Source of the DNA: Terriglobia bacterium
Lineage (GTDB): Bacteria > Acidobacteriota > Terriglobia > Acidiferrales > UBA7541
Assembly (NCBI GenBank): GCA_963695545.1
Contig: OY968796.1
Coordinates: forward strand, 3,328,001 to 3,392,000
Direction: 5' to 3'
DNA length: 64,000 nt
Positions 56,434-64,000 of the stretch are shown here, piece by piece (the first letter of the stretch is position 1; the number at the start of each line of letters is the position of its first letter). The notes below the pieces were generated by a model, which saw only the letters and a list, made by a program, of their open reading frames with translations, searched no databases and was not told the origin of the DNA. Made by a program: the position numbers and the translations under genes.

Positions 56434-57225
56434 TTAATGATGCGCGGCGACGGCGCCGACTACGGCCCCGGTGGCCGCGCCGATCGCGAACCATTTCGCG
56501 CCGCGGCGCAGGCGCGTCCAGAAGCTTCCGCCCTTCGCGCTTGTGACGGCGGCGTCGCGCTGTTGCGTGAGCGCGGTGACCTGCGTCTGCGCGTCGGCCA
56601 AATCTTTTTTCGCGGTGTCGCGGTCGAGCGTGGTCGCCTGGCAATTCTCGAAATAATCGTAGAGCGGCTGGAGATCGGCCTGCGGAATGTTCGCGACGAT
56701 CGGAGCGAGGTTGCTCGGGACTGCGGCGCTCGCGCTCGCGCCAGCGGCGCCCGCGCTGACGCCGGGCGCGGCGGGAAGGCTCGCGCCGTTTTGCGCCGCA
56801 GATTGGGCGTTAGCGGAATTGCTCGCCCTGGTATTCGCGCCGGCGCTCGCAGGCTGATTCCCTGCCCCGCCGGCCTGCGCGTTGGCCGAACTTGGCGCTG
56901 ACGGTGAAATCGTGATCGGTTGCGGCAGCGGCGGCAGCGCCGACGGCAGCGCGGCGAGCGCTTGCTGCGGCGTCTGAACTTTTTTCTCGAGCGCGGCGAT
57001 TTGCGCGAGCTGCGTCGCGAGTTGCGCGTCGCGCGCTTTTTCGCTGGCTGCGGCCGCGTCGAGATGTTTCTGCGATGCCGCGAGCGTGGCCGAAAGCGCC
57101 GCGGCGCTGCGATGCGCCGCAAACCACGCGTGCGCGATCAGCGCCGCAGCGATCAGCAGCGCGACAAGCGCGACCGCGCGCCAATGTTTCCAGGCGAGTT
57201 CGTCGAGTGAGAGGGGAATTGACAT
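56434..57225 (-). CDS. Membrane-anchored coiled-coil protein, spanin-like by position
   Basis: N-terminal TM, Ala/Gln coiled coils, Pro-rich linker, C-terminal hydrophobic GxxxG segment. Confidence 0.6.
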   Translation of the reverse strand: MSIPLSLDELAWKHWRAVALVALLIAAALIAHAWFAAHRSAAALSATLAASQKHLDAAAASEKARDAQLATQLAQIAALEKKVQTPQQALAALPSALPPLPQPITISPSAPSSANAQAGGAGNQPASAGANTRASNSANAQSAAQNGASLPAAPGVSAGAAGASASAAVPSNLAPIVANIPQADLQPLYDYFENCQATTLDRDTAKKDLADAQTQVTALTQQRDAAVTSAKGGSFWTRLRRGAKWFAIGAATGAVVGAVAAHH

Positions 57226-57306
57226 ATAGGTCAGCGCATCTCGTCGCGCTAGACGGTCAGAATGCCCGCGGTAAGAGCGTGGAGATGGAGCATCGGCAAT
57301 TCAGAG

Positions 57307-57624
57307 TTAGGACTTTGTTGGTTTCTGAGTTGATCGCGATTGCGGGGAACTGGACTGTGATTCTACGGCGATGATTTTCTTGTTTTTCAGGATTTCGATG
57401 TAGTCATCGAGTGACACGTCACACCTGATCAGACCCGCCAATTGCTTCTCGTTGAGTTTCAGTTGCTGTCTGATCAGATTCCCGGGCTGTTCTTTATTTC
57501 CCTGTGAGCGTTTTGTGCGGACCACCGTCTGACCGCCATATTCAAACCAAGCGAGTCGGTCTCCGCTGTTACGTACCTTGAGTCCTAACTTGTTTACGAT
57601 TTTCTCAAATTCATGGACTTTCAT
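57307..57624 (-). CDS. HicA-like small basic protein (putative toxin)
   Basis: 105 aa, alpha-beta-beta-beta-alpha pattern, TKRSQG and LIRQQLKL segments; overlaps the upstream HicB-like gene; visibly lower GC. Confidence 0.6.
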   Translation of the reverse strand: MKVHEFEKIVNKLGLKVRNSGDRLAWFEYGGQTVVRTKRSQGNKEQPGNLIRQQLKLNEKQLAGLIRCDVSLDDYIEILKNKKIIAVESQSSSPQSRSTQKPTKS

Positions 57625-58045
57625 GGGGCCGCCGCACGACATGCTCTTTCAATACACCCCAGACTTTGGCTAAGTCCGGCCCGAGGCGCGGTTCCTCTGC
57701 CTCCAGTGAAACGTAGAGTTCAGCGATCGTATGTCCGAGATCATCGCAAGCCGAGGAATTCGACTTGCCGGTTCCAAATTCGTCCACCTGCCTCCACGAC
57801 GCGATAGCAGTGGCTCCGCGTCGGTCCAGATCGACGGGGATCGGCTTAATCACTCGAAACTCGCATCGACTGATCGTCCCGAGGAGGATCTGCTTCGGGC
57901 CGCGTTCCCGTCTGCGAATATGAACTTTAATTCTTTGGATAACGTCGTGAAGCACCACTGCCTGTGGGACATCGGGCGGTGGCACAAATTTGGGCGCAGG
58001 CTGCTCAAGATTTTGATTTACAAGGTATTGGGGCATAGCGGCCAT
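57611..58045 (-). CDS. HicB-like protein (putative antitoxin)
   Basis: C-terminal EFGTG....ACDDL..TIAELY..L...LGPDL resembling the HicB partial RNase H fold. Confidence 0.55.
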   Translation of the reverse strand: MAAMPQYLVNQNLEQPAPKFVPPPDVPQAVVLHDVIQRIKVHIRRRERGPKQILLGTISRCEFRVIKPIPVDLDRRGATAIASWRQVDEFGTGKSNSSACDDLGHTIAELYVSLEAEEPRLGPDLAKVWGVLKEHVVRRPHESP

Positions 58046-58048
58046 ACT

Positions 58049-58477
58049 CTAGTTACCTCGTATCAGCCCTAGGGGCGGAATCTGAAGCTTGTCGGCCCTG
58101 ACGAGAGCCCGGCCGAGAAAGACGTCGTTTGCATACAGCTGGAACTCATAAGTCCCGAATTCGGCTATGGGGATGCCGGCGAAATTGAACGCCAATTCCA
58201 TCGGATCGTCTGGCTTGGCCCATTGCGCGTCCACCCTTATCTCCACGACAGGAGATTCGTCCCTGAGATTCACCAGTCGAACCCGAAGGTTGTACGTCCC
58301 AGAACCCTCAACCAATTTCGCATACAGGCCTAGGCTGTTTATCGGAAACGGAACGGCCGGAGACTGAACTCGATCAAAAACTCCCACAAGCGTTCGTTTT
58401 TGAGTCGCAGCGTCTTGTATCACCGTGTCGCAAACGATGATCGCCAAAACTGTCGGAATGGGGCTGGATTCAGCCAT
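58049..58477 (-). CDS. DUF6941-like all-beta protein
   Basis: AIIVCDTVIQD...KRTLVGVFDR and GTYEFQLYAND motifs recalled from DUF6941. Confidence 0.7.
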   Translation of the reverse strand: MAESSPIPTVLAIIVCDTVIQDAATQKRTLVGVFDRVQSPAVPFPINSLGLYAKLVEGSGTYNLRVRLVNLRDESPVVEIRVDAQWAKPDDPMELAFNFAGIPIAEFGTYEFQLYANDVFLGRALVRADKLQIPPLGLIRGN

Positions 58478-58665
58478 CAAGCAATATCTAGGACATCATC
58501 AGCCGGAATGTTCGTGAAAGCAAGGGGGCACGCGGTTACAGTACGCCCGATCCGCAGGTTTCGCCTCCTCTTCGCTCCCGTGGCGCGCGCGATAAGACCA
58601 GCTAGTTGTCTGCGGCGCGCGCTCTTGTGTGTTAATCAAGGTAAAGGCCCATCCGCGCGGCGATT

Positions 58666-59109
58666 TCATTTGTAATGCGCGACGCGAGACAAAACCTCGG
58701 CGGGATAATCGCGATTGGCGCCGCCGTTCCAGGCGAGCAGGGCGCGCGTCGCGTCGCCGGCGGCGGCGTCGAATTTCGCGCGCAATTGGCGGCAGCCGAA
58801 TTCGAGGCCAGTGGCGGGATCGCAGAGTTCGGCGAGCGACGCGGCTTCGCAGCCGAGCTCGCGCGCCACCTGGCCCATCAGCTGCATCAGGCCCCAGGAG
58901 ATCGAGCGCGTGTAGGCCTCGGTGGCGGAAATTTTGCCGGCGTTGTAGAGCGGGGCGATGTAGCGCGCGAGAAAACCCGGCTCATAGCGCACGGCCCACG
59001 GATTCCAGGCCGATTCCTGTTCGACGACCGCGCAGACCAGCGGCGGATCGAGTTTGTGCGCGACCGCGGCAACGCGAGCGAGCGCGATGAGTGCGGGCGG
59101 TGCGGACAC
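58666..59109 (-). CDS. Lytic transglycosylase (SLT domain), endolysin candidate
   Basis: AVVEQESAW (catalytic Glu), SWGLMQLM, ALLAWNGG; no signal peptide. Confidence 0.9.
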   Translation of the reverse strand: MSAPPALIALARVAAVAHKLDPPLVCAVVEQESAWNPWAVRYEPGFLARYIAPLYNAGKISATEAYTRSISWGLMQLMGQVARELGCEAASLAELCDPATGLEFGCRQLRAKFDAAAGDATRALLAWNGGANRDYPAEVLSRVAHYK

Positions 59110-59192
59110 TGAATATCTGAAGGGTGAAAATGGGATCGACGGCGCAGCGTCTATGGGCGGAAATCCAAGAGAAACAGAACGGGCGGCACCGT

Positions 59193-59229
59193 AAAAAAGA
59201 AAGGACTCGACCGAAGCCGAGTCCTTTCT
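59193..59229 (-). terminator. Intrinsic terminator of the predicted sRNA
   Basis: Minus strand AGAAAGGACTCG-GCTTCGGT-CGAGTCCTTTCT then a T run: 12-bp stem with a cUUCGg loop. Confidence 0.9.
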
Positions 59230-59251
59230 AAGAATCTGTCCTTGCCAAGGT
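59193..59251 (-). ncRNA. Predicted ~59-nt sRNA antisense to the anticodon arm of the neighbouring tRNA
   Basis: Bounded by a consensus promoter and a terminator; 5' end ACCUUGGCAAGGAC is the exact reverse complement of tRNA positions 28-41. Confidence 0.75.
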
Positions 59252-59257
59252 AAGAAC

Positions 59258-59286
59258 AGATTAACCGAAACAGCCTAGGCTGTCAA
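59258..59286 (-). promoter_or_regulatory. Sigma70-type promoter for the sRNA
   Basis: TTGACA (59286-59281), 17 nt, TAATCT (59263-59258); A at 59251 lies 7 nt downstream; palindrome ACAGCCTAGGCTGT at 59270-59283. Confidence 0.78.
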
Positions 59287-59332
59287 GATAACTTCCTACG
59301 CATATCCCTTTTTGCATAGGCCATGCAACCGC

Positions 59333-59404
59333 TGGACGCGACGGGGCTCGAACCCGCAACCCGACCTTGGCAAGGACGTGTGTTCCCAATTACACCACGC
59401 GCCC
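59333..59404 (-). tRNA. Atypical tRNA: anticodon GCC (Gly) with Ala-type acceptor stem; CCA not encoded
   Basis: GGGCGCG TG GTGT AATTGGGA ACAC A CGTCC TTGCCAA GGTCG GGTT GCGGG TTCGAGC CCCGT CGCGTCC A folds into a full cloverleaf with U8, A14, G18, G19, U33, TTC and A58. Confidence 0.92.
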
Positions 59405-59411
59405 ACGTGTA

Positions 59412-59440
59412 CTACTAACATATCTATCCGTGTCTGACAA
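59412..59440 (-). promoter_or_regulatory. Possible weak promoter for the tRNA
   Basis: TTGTCA, 17 nt ending TGT, then TAGTAG, 7 nt before G1; the -10 lacks the conserved final T. Confidence 0.4.
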
Positions 59441-59513
59441 CACATGGATCGATGGTCCAAGGCTGCGCCACCTGTGAATCGGACCAAAGCGGAAGTCAAA
59501 ACCGCGCACTGTG

Positions 59514-59759
59514 TCAATCGCGGCGCTTGGTGTCGGTCAGGTCGATGAAGCCGATCGCGGGGGGATCCTCGAGATGAATGCCGAGATGATCGGCGATCTG
59601 GCGCAGCGCGTGGTGCAGGTGTGGCAGATGGATCAGCGCCATGGCGGTGACAAAAGTGCGGCGGATTTCATCGTCGCGCATGCGTCGATGCAGCCAACGC
59701 ACGAACAGCGTGAATTGCGCCAGAATCGCGAATGCGACGACGACCCAGTAGGGGTTCAT
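59514..59759 (-). CDS. Small single-TM protein, holin-like by position
   Basis: GGAGG RBS; N-terminal TM followed by a basic segment; nearest protein gene upstream of the SLT. Confidence 0.55.
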   Translation of the reverse strand: MNPYWVVVAFAILAQFTLFVRWLHRRMRDDEIRRTFVTAMALIHLPHLHHALRQIADHLGIHLEDPPAIGFIDLTDTKRRD

Positions 59760-59924
59760 GTCGTCCTCCGAACTGATCTGGCGTGGGGCGGAGCGAGCCG
59801 GCGCGGTTTCGTGGCGCGTGCCGCTCGCGCACCCTGCGATCTTTCGCGCGCACAGATTTCGAGCGAAAGTCCTCGGTCAGAGGAGCTTTCGCGGTAAACA
59901 AGTCAAATTTAATTTACGTGCTTG

Positions 59925-60479
59925 TCAGATGGCACCGCCGATGCCGGCGGTTAGGCCGTTCGGGCCGATGCCGAGATTGAAACTGTTGCTGGGAGCGGCG
60001 GCGCGTTGCTGAACGCCCAAAATATCGCTGGGGATGCCGAGCGCGCGGCCGAGCAGGCCGGAATTTGTGCCGTACAAACCAGCGAGACCTTGCAGCGCGG
60101 CGAGCTGATCGGATTGCTGTTTATTCGCGAATGCGATCTGCGCATTTTGCGCGACGGTGGCGGCGCTGGTGCCATAATTCCGCGAGAGCGCGTCGAGCGT
60201 GCTGTTGTAGCCGGCGTTGTTGTTGGTGGCGGCGGCGCGCGTGGCGGCGTTGTTCATCAGCGAATCGAACGTGCTGCCGAGCGCGCCCATGGCTTGCCCG
60301 GTGATCGCGGATTGCTGCGCCGCGGTGTAGCCGGGATTGTTCAGCAGATTCTGATAGCCCGGCAGCAGCTGGCTATAGAGCGAAGAATTCTGGCTGGTGA
60401 GATTTTGATTGATCGCGTTCTGCGTGGCGAGTTGCTGATTGGTCGCCTGGACCGTTTGCCCTTCTGAGCCGCGTCCCAT
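59925..60479 (-). CDS. Phage internal virion/ejection protein-like
   Basis: GGAGG RBS; Q/N/A/G-rich, nearly uncharged, helical; downstream of nozzle-like genes. Confidence 0.55.
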   Translation of the reverse strand: MGRGSEGQTVQATNQQLATQNAINQNLTSQNSSLYSQLLPGYQNLLNNPGYTAAQQSAITGQAMGALGSTFDSLMNNAATRAAATNNNAGYNSTLDALSRNYGTSAATVAQNAQIAFANKQQSDQLAALQGLAGLYGTNSGLLGRALGIPSDILGVQQRAAAPSNSFNLGIGPNGLTAGIGGAI

Positions 60480-60549
60480 GTGAAGACACCTCCGTGGAAT
60501 GAATTCGAGATTTGAGTGGCGGCGCGCGTGATTCGCGCGATGTGTTTTT

Positions 60550-60622
60550 TGTAGCGGAGGCCTTTAGGCCTCCATCTGGGGCGTGCGTGGAAAAGGCTGG
60601 AGGCCTAAAGGCCTCCGCTACA
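60550..60622. repeat. GTAG-type REP doublet in inverted orientation
   Basis: TGTAGCGGAGGCCTTTAGGCCTCCA ... TGGAGGCCTAAAGGCCTCCGCTACA. Confidence 0.88.
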
Positions 60623-60687
60623 TAACCCGTGCTACAGAGCCGCGGCCGCGAGCCTCGGCGATGCGCGCTCCGCAAACGAAGCGTGCG

Positions 60688-61209
60688 TTACGAGTTTCCG
60701 CTGGTCGTGGTTTTGCCGAAGCCGGAGCCGCCGCTGCCGCCGCTGGCGGTGCCGCTGCCGGATGAAGCTTGCGGCGCGGGGCCGGCCGCGCCTCCGCCGA
60801 CAACCGGCGTGGCGGGCGAACCGAAGACGACCGCGGCCGATGGTTGCGAGCCGAGATATTGCGAATAGCCGCGCCAATATAATGTTTGGTTGCCGAGCGA
60901 AACGCGCAGATTGCGCGAGCTGCCCAGAAAATAAACGTGCGGCGCGGCGAAGCCGGGCGTGCTGTCCGACTCGACGAAATAATATATGCCCTTATTCACG
61001 GCGGAATTGTCGGTGATGGCCACGTCGAAAATTCCGTCGGCCGCGACCACGGAGATTCCGCCGATCGGCGCGGGCGCGGTGATGTCGCCCGAAGGATCCA
61101 CGCCCGTCGCGCGGCCGATCGAATTCACGGCGGAGATGACCTGCGTGATGGCTTCGTAGGTGTACGGCGATTCGCTTTTGATGCGCGCGAGTTGTGGGAC
61201 GGTGAGCAT
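60688..61209 (-). CDS. Hypothetical phage structural protein
   Basis: 173 aa, beta-rich core with G/S tail, in the co-oriented late gene run. Confidence 0.6.
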   Translation of the reverse strand: MLTVPQLARIKSESPYTYEAITQVISAVNSIGRATGVDPSGDITAPAPIGGISVVAADGIFDVAITDNSAVNKGIYYFVESDSTPGFAAPHVYFLGSSRNLRVSLGNQTLYWRGYSQYLGSQPSAAVVFGSPATPVVGGGAAGPAPQASSGSGTASGGSGGSGFGKTTTSGNS

Positions 61210-61239
61210 TTGAATCGAATACGATTTTCGCGAACGTTT

Positions 61240-61346
61240 GTGTCGCCCCTACGGGGCTTAAAACAATTGGAGAAAATATAAAATGGACCGCGTACCCAGG
61301 GCTTACGCCCTGGGCTAAGCTCTGCCGCCCCTACGGGGCTGGTTTT
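61240..61346. repeat. Composite REP-like element, copy 2 (inverted relative to copy 1)
   Basis: Reverse complement of the 39259 element with a different AT-rich middle; another GTAG REP half at about 61403-61426. Confidence 0.9.
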
Positions 61347-61447
61347 CGTGCGGGCCGCGATTTCGTCACGTGGCGCGACCTCAGCATTGCGCGAAAAAAG
61401 ATGCCGCCCTAAAGGGCGGCGCTACAACGACAAAGTCTACGGCGCAA

Positions 61448-61849
61448 TCACGCGACGTCAACCTTGCGGCAGAAGCAGGGCCAGGGATCGCGGCGCCAGC
61501 CCAGGCGCGCGAGGCGACGGCCGAAGGCGCGCGCGACGGGCGGCGGCAGAAACGCTTGTGCGTCGTCGAGGCCGCGGGCGGCGGCGGCGCGGCGCGTGGC
61601 TTCGTGCATCACCAGAAAACGCTGCCAGCGATCGCGCGGTGTGCCGGCACGCGGATCGTGAAGCAAATATGTTTCGGCGGTCAGGCGCAGGAGCACGCCC
61701 ATGGCCGGCTCGCCGGAATCGTCCTCGAGCACCAATTTTGAAATGAATAGCGGGCTCGTGAGATCGGGAAACGGATAGCCGAAGCCTTGCGCGGCGTGCA
61801 GGCGGCGCAGAGCGTCGAGATCGCGTTCCGTATATTCGCGGATCAACAT
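61448..61849 (-). CDS. Hypothetical protein with GNAT-like pattern (podovirus head-tail region type)
   Basis: MLIREYTERDLDAL start and FGRRLARLGW end; directly after the nozzle-like gene. Confidence 0.55.
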   Translation of the reverse strand: MLIREYTERDLDALRRLHAAQGFGYPFPDLTSPLFISKLVLEDDSGEPAMGVLLRLTAETYLLHDPRAGTPRDRWQRFLVMHEATRRAAAARGLDDAQAFLPPPVARAFGRRLARLGWRRDPWPCFCRKVDVA

Positions 61850-61952
61850 CTGGGACGAAAGAAGGAAAATTCGACGGACCCGCGTGTGGGGCCGGTGCGA
61901 GGTGGCGCCGGGAGGTGGCGCTCGCCGCGCGATCACAAATCGCTTCGTGATG

Positions 61953-62206
61953 CAGCCCCGTAGGGGCGGCAGAGCTTAGCCCAGGGCGTAAGCCCTGGGT
62001 GGACAAATCCTCCACACGTTTTTCATCAAATGTTTTTCTTAAGCCCCGTAGGGGCGACACAGTCGTTGAATCAATTGCGGATATCGCGAGCGCTTGTGCC
62101 GCCCCTACGGGGCTAAGACAAAACATTTGGGAATAATCTAATTTGCGAATCGTTCCCAGGGCTTACGCCCTGGGCTAAGCTCTTTCGCCCCTACGGGGCT
62201 GGTTTT
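61953..62206. repeat. Two composite REP-like elements (copies 3 and 4) in inverted arrangement
   Basis: 61953-62060 forward and about 62096-62206 reverse. Confidence 0.9.
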
Positions 62207-62258
62207 CGAGTGCGCGGCGATTTCGTCCCGTGGCGCGATTGTCGCGGGCACGGTTTGC

Positions 62259-62348
62259 GTAGCACAGCCATTCCTGGCTGTGCGATTTTGGGTTTTCTAC
62301 ACGCGGCGCAAAAAAGCAAAGGCGCACAGGCAGGAATGCCTGTGCTAC
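62259..62348. repeat. GTAG-type REP doublet, another family
   Basis: GTAGCACAGCCATTCCTGGCTGTGCG ... CGCACAGGCAGGAATGCCTGTGCTAC. Confidence 0.85.
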
Positions 62349-62466
62349 GAAAAGACGATGGCGCGCCCCGCTACACGAGGCAGAACATTCAGCACGCCCG
62401 CGCGCGGCAAACACCGAGAGATCCCTCGTCGAGGACTCCTCGGGATGACGGCGCTTGGTCGCGCCG

Positions 62467-64000
62467 TCAATTCACGCCGCGGACGATGGACCATGGGTCG
62501 GGCATCAGGCTGGGGATGAAGCGCTCCATCTCGAACCAGGAGCCGGCGGAATTTGTGCCGAACTGGAAGGCGACGCGCTCGGCGAGAACGTTGATCGGCA
62601 ATTCCAGATCGTGCGGCGAGTGCGAGGCGAGCGTTAGCGCGGGCAGCGACGCGGCGTAGGCTTCGCTATCGGCGAACGCGCTTAAATTCAACGTGCCGGT
62701 GCCTTGGGCGTAGAGCGTGAGATACGAAAACAATTTTCGGTGCGCGCGCACGTCGAATTGCTGCTCGAGGTCGTGGCTCAGAAAGAAAAATGTGGTGTAG
62801 TAGGCGTCGATCGCGGCGCCGTCGTCGGAATATTGCGTGTCGAGCATTTGATAGATTTTGCCGTTGCCCACGCCGTTGCCCAAAAACAATTGCGCGGTGC
62901 CGTTTGCGCGTTCGGCGAGCGTGGCGCAATTCGCCACGATGCTCCACGGGCACCAGCGGCGCGAGCGGCCGGCGGAAAACAATTTTCCGCTGATGGTAGA
63001 AAAGTGATACGGGCCGAGGCCGGCGATTTCGCTCGAAGAAAAGCAGCTGCGGTAATCGAGCATCAGCACGATCGAAGGCGTGGTCGCGGTGCCCAGCGGA
63101 ACGCCGCACAGAATGCGGCGATTGGTGGTGTCCACGCGGACCCACAGCGTGTTGCCCGCGGCCCAATTGATCTGGTCCCACAGCGGCTGAATTTCCTGCG
63201 AGATTTTCACCGGCTCGCCGCCATCATATATATAGAGGCCCTGGCGCGCGGCGATCACAGCCCAATCTTCGCCGATGTCCACGCCATTCACGGAGGGCGT
63301 GCCGACGGTGCGCGAAATTTCGGTCACGCTCCACGAAGCCGGCTCGCTGCCACTGGAATCCTGCGTGGAATAAAGTTCGTGGTCCTTCGCGAAATATAAA
63401 ATTCCGCGCAACTCGAACGCGGCGCGCACGGCTTGCCCATCGCCTTCCGCGATTTCGAGCAGGCCGGTGACGCCGTCGTAGCTTTCCGGGCTGCCGGCGG
63501 TCGAAGCGCGCACCACGCTGGTGTTGTACGGCTCGGCGGTGGGGAAAATCTCGATGTTGTCCACGCCGAATCCGCCGCCGACGCTCGGCGTGCCGTCGGC
63601 ATCAACGCGCAGCACGAGATCGGACGGAATGGTGGCGATCGCGGGCGTTAGCGGCGCGATAAATTCCTGCCACGCGGAGGTGGCTTGCGCGGCGGTGACT
63701 TCGATGCCGGTGGTGTTGATTCCGGCCGACGCGCTGTAAAGATGAATGTGCAGCGTGCCCTGCGTCGCAGGCGGCGAACCGACGGCGCGCACGCGCGCGC
63801 GCACGGAGTACGCGGTCTGCACGGCGATGCGCGTGACGCCGAGATAGTCCGCGACCGCGCTTTGCGTGATCAGGCCGCGCGTGGCGGTCGTGCCGTCGCC
63901 GAGAATATCGTACGCGCCGCCCCACACGCCGTTATCGCGCTGGCCGCCGGTGAAAAATGTGGCGTCGGGCGTCCAGCCGAGCGGCACGCCGCTGGTGGGA
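62467..64000 (-). CDS. Phage tail nozzle/stabilisation-like protein, 5'-truncated
   Basis: Over 506 aa, beta-propeller-like; YDGGEPVKISQEIQPLW resembles podoviral nozzle proteins (pattern-level only). Confidence 0.55.
   Translation of the reverse strand, partial: PTSGVPLGWTPDATFFTGGQRDNGVWGGAYDILGDGTTATRGLITQSAVADYLGVTRIAVQTAYSVRARVRAVGSPPATQGTLHIHLYSASAGINTTGIEVTAAQATSAWQEFIAPLTPAIATIPSDLVLRVDADGTPSVGGGFGVDNIEIFPTAEPYNTSVVRASTAGSPESYDGVTGLLEIAEGDGQAVRAAFELRGILYFAKDHELYSTQDSSGSEPASWSVTEISRTVGTPSVNGVDIGEDWAVIAARQGLYIYDGGEPVKISQEIQPLWDQINWAAGNTLWVRVDTTNRRILCGVPLGTATTPSIVLMLDYRSCFSSSEIAGLGPYHFSTISGKLFSAGRSRRWCPWSIVANCATLAERANGTAQLFLGNGVGNGKIYQMLDTQYSDDGAAIDAYYTTFFFLSHDLEQQFDVRAHRKLFSYLTLYAQGTGTLNLSAFADSEAYAASLPALTLASHSPHDLELPINVLAERVAFQFGTNSAGSWFEMERFIPSLMPDPWSIVRGVN

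Follow-up and report, generated by a model that had tools for sequence, protein, structure and literature searches.

Toxin-antitoxin systems of type VIII, among them creTA and SdsR-RyeA, pair an RNA toxin with an RNA antitoxin in a small, protein-free locus and attack translation (PMC10767807, PMC8501985). Here we describe a cassette that would share these traits, with candidate partners, in a 64,000-nucleotide window of the genome of a Terriglobia bacterium (Acidobacteriota; assembly GCA_963695545.1, contig OY968796.1, positions 3,328,001 to 3,392,000; coordinates below are those of the window). It consists of a tRNA gene followed by the gene of a predicted small RNA (sRNA) that opens with the complement of the tRNA's own anticodon arm. 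We found that this dedicated sRNA gene co-evolves with its tRNA across a family of such cassettes found in many soil bacteria, with a specificity given by computed pairing. By sequence, the cassette holds an adjacent candidate RNA antitoxin specific to its tRNA (promoter, cognate complement, terminator and co-variation), and its candidate toxin is a tRNA gene without any conserved open reading frame (ORF). If toxicity holds, the cassette would formally fall under the type VIII definition of an RNA toxin with an RNA antitoxin.

The described type VIII systems are built differently. In creTA, a mini-ORF of rare codons (CreT) sequesters a rare tRNA, and a CRISPR-repeat-like antitoxin encoded beside cas genes (CreA) exerts its control on transcription through CRISPR-Cas (PMC10767807, PMC8501985), whereas no Cas family was found among the 149 ORFs nearest to the cassettes and no CRISPR family in Rfam scans. 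SdsR and RyeA are overlapping sRNAs from opposite strands (PMC10767807), whereas the tRNA and sRNA of the window lie on one strand with 81 nt between them, and Rfam gave no family for the sRNA in the window or in 20 family loci. In the cassette the candidate toxin is itself a tRNA, and the candidate antitoxin, on the same strand and with its own promoter, is complementary to the anticodon arm.

Natural missense tRNAs provide a second comparison. The allo-tRNAs of Acidobacteria likewise have identity elements that disagree with their anticodons, some with G3.U70, and they are toxic in Escherichia coli and found near toxin-antitoxin loci (PMC5389517, PMC7609411); GCG anticodons occur in two of three examined G3U70 rows of a supplementary table (PMC5389517). 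Allo-tRNAs have an 8/4 or 9/3 branch and a long variable arm, whereas cassette tRNAs keep the canonical 7/5 branch and a variable loop of 4-5 nt. The words ‘antisense’ and ‘complementary’ do not occur in the main text and one supplementary table of PMC5389517, whose supplementary figures could show related loci. The tRNA-ProX genes of Streptomyces and Kitasatospora are also natural mistranslating tRNAs with varied anticodons and toxicity in E. coli, but they have proline identity and a dedicated ProRSx gene, and antisense RNA is not mentioned in that report (PMC10404621). In the cassettes the acceptor is of the alanine type, and no ProRS family was found among the nearest flanking ORFs. In type I systems such as hok/sok, an antisense RNA from a stronger promoter faces an inert primary toxin transcript, but there the antisense RNA acts on an mRNA that encodes a small protein toxin; the cassette complement instead targets tRNA nt 27-41, and no ORF is conserved. 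Searches of the full-text literature, with subscription papers mostly outside their scope, and of Rfam gave, among the papers listed, no described tRNA/antisense-sRNA pair of this layout, in agreement with a sequence-only reading of the window that knew of no such system. The cassette family is real, conserved, co-evolving and apparently undescribed.

Parts of the cassette and identity of its tRNA

All parts of the cassette lie on the minus strand. The tRNA, with anticodon GCC (59333..59404; ARAGORN and Rfam, 54 bits), is the candidate toxin and the only tRNA gene in the window. A weak promoter-like site for it can be inferred from the sequence at 59411..59440, with a -35 box TTGTCA (59440-59435), a spacer of 17-18 nt and a poor -10 box (59417-59411); it matches 8 of 12 consensus positions, against a family mean of 6.5. 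Downstream of the tRNA, a trailer hairpin with a purine-rich loop (59295..59320), recognized from the sequence and family comparison, precedes a sigma-70-like sRNA promoter (59258..59286), in which TTGACA (59286-59281) and TAATCT (59263-59258) are separated by 17 nt. The predicted +1, A59251, six bases past the -10 box, begins a predicted 59-nt sRNA (59193..59251), the candidate antitoxin, which ends in an intrinsic terminator with a 14-bp UUCG stem (59229-59198) and a U tail to 59193. The predicted 5′ end of the sRNA is the anti-anticodon segment (59238..59251), an exact complement of tRNA nt 28-41 (59364-59377). This 14-nt inverted repeat is found nowhere else in the 4.16-Mb genome, the two cassette sites being the only hits of a seeded search allowing up to one mismatch. 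The sequence-only reading had described this succession of tRNA, promoter, exact complement and UUCG terminator, as well as a U29.U41 mismatch in the tRNA stem, and every one of these features is present.

The window sRNA promoter was absent from the output of a generic promoter scan (0 found) and its -10 box matches the consensus at only 3 of 6 positions; we credit it because its boxes are conserved across the family. As to the claim that the module contains no credible protein gene, no ORF or partner protein is conserved, while short ORFs do overlap the cassette. The longest would encode 73 aa (59296-59517), and the closest homolog (G003) does not share the flanking sequence needed for it.

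The window tRNA combines an alanine-type acceptor (G1-C72, G2-C71, G3.U70 and A73) with an anticodon that reads GGC and GGU. It has a 7/5 branch and a 4-nt variable loop, and CCA is not encoded. Its acceptor is almost identical to that of the host tRNA-Ala(TGC) and unlike those of the host's three ordinary tRNA-Gly genes, each of which opens with GCG and carries U73. Across the family, tRNA-Ala identity is likewise found by sequence (G3.U70, G2-C71, A73, intact acceptor and T stems), with the acceptor stem intact in 144 and the T stem in 142 of 151 cassette tRNAs, CCA encoded in one of 151 and A20 in none of the 17 GCG cassette tRNAs; tRNA-Asp needs G73. U33 is present in 166/166 cassettes and G34 in all core rows defined below, although U33, like G3.U70 and A73, was fixed by the search pattern and its conservation in the scans is by construction. 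G3.U70 suffices for AlaRS (PMC11415595), whereas bacterial glycine identity needs U73 and C2-G71, cysteine U73 and arginine A20, and D-aminoacyl-tRNA deacylase strips glycine from G3.U70 tRNAs without U73 (PMC9976931). The anticodon stem is the irregular part: a complete 5-bp stem occurs in 16 of 151 cassette tRNAs compared with 94 of 100 phage tRNA-Ala controls, and an antisense RNA could therefore invade it.

A family of cassettes with co-varying partners

A DNA similarity search of 101 related genomes returned three full homologs, in G003 (92%, cassette only), G060 and G021. Their tRNAs have G3.U70, A73 and GCC but differing arms, and each is followed by TTGAC, 18 nt and TAATCT and then by the complement of its own arm; homolog complements were exact over 17 nt in L003 and matched at 15 of 18 positions in L004. 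Genome contigs were then scanned for Ala-acceptor tRNAs that combine a GUG/CAC D stem with any base but G in the middle of the anticodon, which gave at least 120 matches. Among the matches listed, 108 of 120 records were titled Acidobacteriota, and the anticodons were GTC (81), GCG (19), GCC (4), GCA (3) and ATC (1). A metagenome scan with GTC and GCG left out gave 114 matches, 60 of them GCC, and viral contigs gave seven matches, two of which are family members. Removal of duplicates left 229 unique rows. The core consists of the 174 GTC, GCG, GCC, GCA and GCT rows flanked downstream by 170 nt or more, kin among them not being independent, and 55 further rows with other anticodons or short flanks stand outside this count.

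A complement of the anticodon arm with a score of at least 10 was found downstream of the tRNA in 167 of 174 core rows and upstream in six. Phage tRNA-Ala(TGC) genes with the same tRNA body and GUG/CAC D stem, but an alanine anticodon and intact stems, had such a complement in 2 of 97 cases at score 10 and in none at 11; they came from a first general pattern, in which 110 of 119 matches were ordinary tRNA-Ala and which was used as a control only. These phage tRNAs are a plausible ancestor of the cassette tRNA. A class-wide pattern that allowed any anticodon matched 7 of 251 genomes, all with non-Ala anticodons, and its backwards control matched none; class-wide searching added six loci, all with the complement at the expected place, one tRNA sequence repeating an earlier row. 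The genome search for a co-varying arm and sRNA that the sequence-only reading had proposed did find co-variation. A tight tRNA pattern had no match in viral contigs, and the exact 14-mer occurred there in 120 stretches, none inside an ARAGORN tRNA, which is uninformative. An sRNA promoter pattern run on 401 genomes of the class gave eight matches, and the six without a tRNA were judged to be chance.

The sRNA unit has a constant architecture. Defined promoter-first, a -35/-10 pair was present in 108 of 113 loci, with the anti-anticodon segment starting 5-15 nt past the -10 box in 107 of those 108, and a promoter score of at least 8.5 was reached by 104/113 loci vs. 29/2260 shuffles. The boxes are conserved across the family, while the spacer of 16-18 nt is free in sequence. 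A terminator follows the complement in 159 of 166 cassettes, giving a median sRNA length of ~60 nt, and a terminator-like site lies within the trailer in three of 166. The sRNA promoter was nearer to consensus than the tRNA promoter in 157 of 162 cassettes (9.5 vs. 6.5 of 12; window, 9 vs. 8), which agrees with the strong sRNA expression that the sequence-only reading had proposed. The GTC and GCG subfamilies have a recurrent TTCC..GGA-type palindrome and a TTGTGA element some 80 and 50 nt ahead of the tRNA, a possible regulator site that the window member lacks.

The triplet past the -10 box matches the cassette's own anticodon in 80 of 82 GTC, 16 of 16 GCG, 3 of 3 GCA and 5 of 7 GCC loci. 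Mean duplex energies were -31.6 kcal/mol for cognate pairs, -20.9 for arms with the same anticodon from other cassettes and -15.4 for arms with another anticodon. The own arm ranked first among 85 arms for 49 of 108 sRNAs and in the top five for 87. Positions 28, 30, 36 and 37 were paired in 165, 164, 164 and 152 of 166 cassettes, through several pair types, compared with 106, 90, 120 and 82 after shuffling, although these cassettes were selected for having a complement and the counts describe the pairing rather than test it. In a tree with anticodon and complement masked, 14 anticodon changes were needed (minimum 4) and well-supported branches forced at least four changes each for GTC and GCC, the bootstrap being unsettled and the window branch long. 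Anticodon and complement have thus switched together several times. Two or three cassettes co-reside in 7 of 100 genomes, and there the own tRNA was the best partner for 14 of 15 sRNAs.

Two further complementarities were noted. Across the family, the trailer loop holds another short stretch that is complementary to the anticodon loop on its 5′ side; in the window member this match is weak. Its pairing hardly separates cognate arms from others, with scores of 6.8 for cognate arms, 6.3-6.4 for other arms and 5.2 after shuffling. Co-variation is confined to the base facing position 35, which is A in 23 of 46 GTC rows and 2 of 71 others (49 of 166 cassettes could not be anchored), such that we treat the element as a lead. 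In some sRNAs a further segment is complementary to tRNA nt 1-15 and varies with nt 9 (38 of 39), which suggests that the sRNA arose by inverted duplication of the 5′ half of the tRNA. The UUGGCAA loop that had been proposed for the sRNA is a weak prediction: folding gives a loop of 3 nt, only the window member is self-complementary in this way, and loop-loop kissing by the 5′ end of the sRNA does not recur across the family.

A promoter, complement and terminator after an Ala-acceptor tRNA also occur in other lineages, with the anticodons AAC (L588), GAA (L493, titled Nitrosarchaeum, L531, L571 and L573) and TAT (L415 and L436, titled Patescibacteria), and with GCC or GCG in the Actinomycetota-titled L418 and L475; for single records, binning errors are possible. 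An ACC group shows the opposite order, with the sRNA ahead of the tRNA and, in L603 and L608, present twice in tandem. Extra sRNA copies without an adjoining tRNA occur at L569, L586 (upstream) and L603/L608. The unit upstream at L586 is degenerate, and those at L569 (269 nt before the tRNA end), L603 and L608 lie beside a cassette and differ from it in specificity. A group of G3.U70 tRNAs with TCT or CCT anticodons (L512, L539, L540, L550, L556, L566, L585 and L611) has an upstream purine-rich site with a hairpin and a conserved trailer, and often, further downstream, a promoter accompanied by a palindrome and one more hairpin. Their codons are rare in the window genome (2.2 and 2.4 per 1000), and the group is possibly under a different control scheme. 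Among phage tRNAs, L145, L158, L225 and L194 have G3.U70 and A73 with Arg (TCT, CCG) or Trp (CCA) anticodons and no complement.

Proposed function and its alternatives

We consider it probable that the cassette is a mistranslating tRNA toxin checked by a more strongly transcribed antisense sRNA, with charging, toxicity, rescue, a separate sRNA transcript, sRNA instability and biological role inferred. The tRNA would be transcribed from its weak promoter, trimmed and given its CCA, and the host AlaRS would charge it with alanine, G3.U70 and A73 being present and the glycine determinants U73 and C2-G71 absent. The window tRNA would then insert alanine at GGC and GGU codons, and its relatives at Asp, Arg or Cys codons. 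The codons concerned are the commonest or joint commonest of their boxes in the host (per 1000: GGC 46.5, CGC 46.6, GAC 26.8 and GAT 27.1). The sRNA, made from the stronger downstream promoter, would pair with the anticodon loop, open the weak stem and block or destroy the tRNA. As the trailer lacks a terminator, the primary transcript should also hold the complement, and it may fold shut in cis and so delay maturation. After cassette loss or a stop in transcription the sRNA would decay first and the proteome would be corrupted, leading to addiction or abortive defence. With a little less confidence, we think that these cassettes likely represent a class of protein-free addiction or defence modules, in which a code-rewriting tRNA toxin and an anti-anticodon sRNA antitoxin follow an orthogonal pairing code in separate lineages; this wider reading takes in alanine at Asp, Arg, Gly, Cys and other codons, the records titled Actinomycetota, Patescibacteria and as an archaeon, and sRNAs either downstream or upstream.

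As far as the literature and Rfam show, this would be the first sRNA dedicated to silencing a tRNA via its anticodon, and the first tRNA toxin with an RNA antidote. It offers a possible answer to how bacteria carry missense tRNAs, a question open since the allo-tRNA work in the same phylum, and, as a natural system, a way to test the idea that codons are reassigned through an ambiguous intermediate. Annotation pipelines label these genes ordinary tRNA-Asp, -Gly, -Arg or -Cys. The 250-base programmable pair could serve as a compact tool for plasmid maintenance or tunable mistranslation.

Several observations weigh against a toxin held by its antidote. Seven of 174 core rows score below 10, and one of these seven is L586, where an intact GCC tRNA is present, yet sRNA and trailer still match GTC, reflecting either a recent change of anticodon or a misassembly. 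L577 lacks an sRNA promoter within the 166 nt covered, and the TCT/CCT group has no complement at all. Position 37 is C in 59 of 166 cassettes, and weak stems with a pyrimidine at 37 may make for poor decoders. Gly-to-Ala substitution is mild, less harmful in human cells than Ser at Phe codons (PMC10404621). Many members lie beside housekeeping genes, not mobile elements, which leaves room for a regulatory role, and only two viral-contig matches belong to the family. Among the nearest ORFs on each side of 75 loci (149 proteins), no conserved partner protein was found; the families were uvrD (9), Glu/Gln-tRNA synthetase (8), alkylation repair (5), transposases (3), FRG (2) and many singletons, and the uvrD and synthetase neighbours suggest that these cassettes have long been resident in chromosomes. 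The sole RNA data are two metatranscriptome contigs of a relative, covering 59246-59387 and 59233-59382 at depths of 2 and 2.7. They differ at eight positions each, share few words, may reflect DNA carry-over and are no proof of expression, and since they read through the promoter they cannot reveal a separate sRNA.

The main rival, which we regard as unlikely, is a regulated mistranslation switch useful to the host, in which, with unchanged molecules and pairing, the sRNA tunes sub-lethal alanine misincorporation under stress without addiction or killing. Stable sites beside uvrD (nine loci, all GCG) and Glu/Gln-tRNA synthetase would suit such a switch, as would a palindrome-like upstream element in 53 of 162 loci (a loose pattern, scored with no control), weakened stems that could limit decoding and the ability of mistranslation to raise stress tolerance (PMC10404621). 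The patchy distribution among genomes of the class and the many unrelated insertion sites argue against it, and repeated anticodon switching, together with mostly orthogonal co-resident cassettes, fits selfish modules better than a host regulator.

More doubtful still is a tRNA that does not serve translation and acts as a decoy for anticodon nucleases, a sink for AlaRS or EF-Tu or an alanine donor to a non-ribosomal pathway, its level being set by the sRNA. The anticodon stem is defective in 135 of 151 cassette tRNAs, and some acidobacterial allo-tRNAs are charged or toxic yet inactive in translation (PMC5389517). However, U33 (pattern-fixed) and G34 are kept throughout, the pairing has the anticodon at its centre and changes with it, and no partner enzyme is conserved among the nearest ORFs.

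We consider it very improbable that the complement acts only in cis within one long precursor, with no separate sRNA. The predicted precursor fold is closed (-93.8 vs. -70.0 kcal/mol with the cloverleaf forced), no internal terminator is present, and the two RNA-library contigs span the tRNA to the complement; against this, conserved -35 and -10 boxes with a free spacer stand right before the complement at far above shuffled frequency, and the whole promoter-complement-terminator unit precedes the tRNA in the ACC lineage.

Just as improbable is the reverse arrangement, which the sequence-only reading had allowed, with the sRNA as a toxin that sequesters the host tRNA of the same anticodon and the odd tRNA as a decoy. 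RNA toxins directed at tRNAs do exist (CreT, PMC8501985), and the CGACC-type tRNA-Gly found in other families of the class is a fairly good match for the window sRNA (-15.9 vs. -20.4 kcal/mol net for its own arm). The CGACC arm had been put forward as the common form of bacterial tRNA-Gly(GCC); it occurs in those other families, but the host's own tRNA-Gly(GCC) lacks it and pairs at -5.9, the best host tRNA after the cassette's own reaching -12.0. The sRNAs of G003, G060 and G021 likewise favour their own tRNAs over host tRNA-Gly(GCC). For 30 GTC loci, with host tRNA-Asp recovered in 22 genomes, the cassette tRNA was the better partner in 25/25 comparisons (-24.2 vs. -4.9), even though host tRNA-Asp is nearly invariant. 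No tRNA-Arg(GCG) was found among the 54 tRNA calls of the window genome, and a decoy would not have the weaker promoter. The reverse arrangement is thus disfavoured, as the sRNAs fit their own tRNAs better than those of the host. Duplication of an integrase attachment site was rejected, since the two copies of the repeat are in inverted orientation, are separated by 112 nt and change with the arm of each tRNA.

Genomic surroundings and other RNA genes

The window cassette sits at the end of a phage-like cluster, between two minus-strand genes: an 81-aa ORF (59514..59759), conserved upstream of the transglycosylase and holin-like by position only, with no significant family match, and an SLT transglycosylase/endolysin-like gene of the cluster (58666..59109), assigned by family matches. 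Matches to a major head protein and a terminase of the cluster lie past the window end. The transglycosylase occurs in 44 of 81 genomes of the family (a tally that includes the unpublished G013, G026 and G037), and the gene pair in 28 of 30 loci (27 of 29 without the unpublished G026); none of our conclusions depends on the unpublished genomes. A tRNA lies between the two genes only in G000 and G003 (2 of 30 orthologous sites), and the window cassette is therefore a late insertion in the phage-like cluster; the family is not mainly phage-borne. In the cluster itself (56434-64000 and L510), the transglycosylase is nearly always single copy and gene order is conserved; the cluster is possibly a domesticated phage or an element resembling a gene-transfer agent.

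Irregular tRNA-like genes are present elsewhere in the window genome (G000:C1 344768-344860, 2007148-2007327 and 2260191-2260283), two of them with UAU anticodons and long arms that recall allo-tRNAs, and no arm complement was found near them (scores <11). Behind the transglycosylase, 57307-58480 on the minus strand holds three ORFs of lower GC content, one for a DUF6941 protein; the others, a pair of 111 and 144 aa without a Pfam, PHROG or NCBIfam match, bear a resemblance by eye to HicA/HicB. The phage-like cluster also contains three copies of the Rfam Acido-Lenti-1 RNA motif, at 61295-61340 (plus strand), 61954-61999 (minus strand) and 62155-62200 (plus strand).
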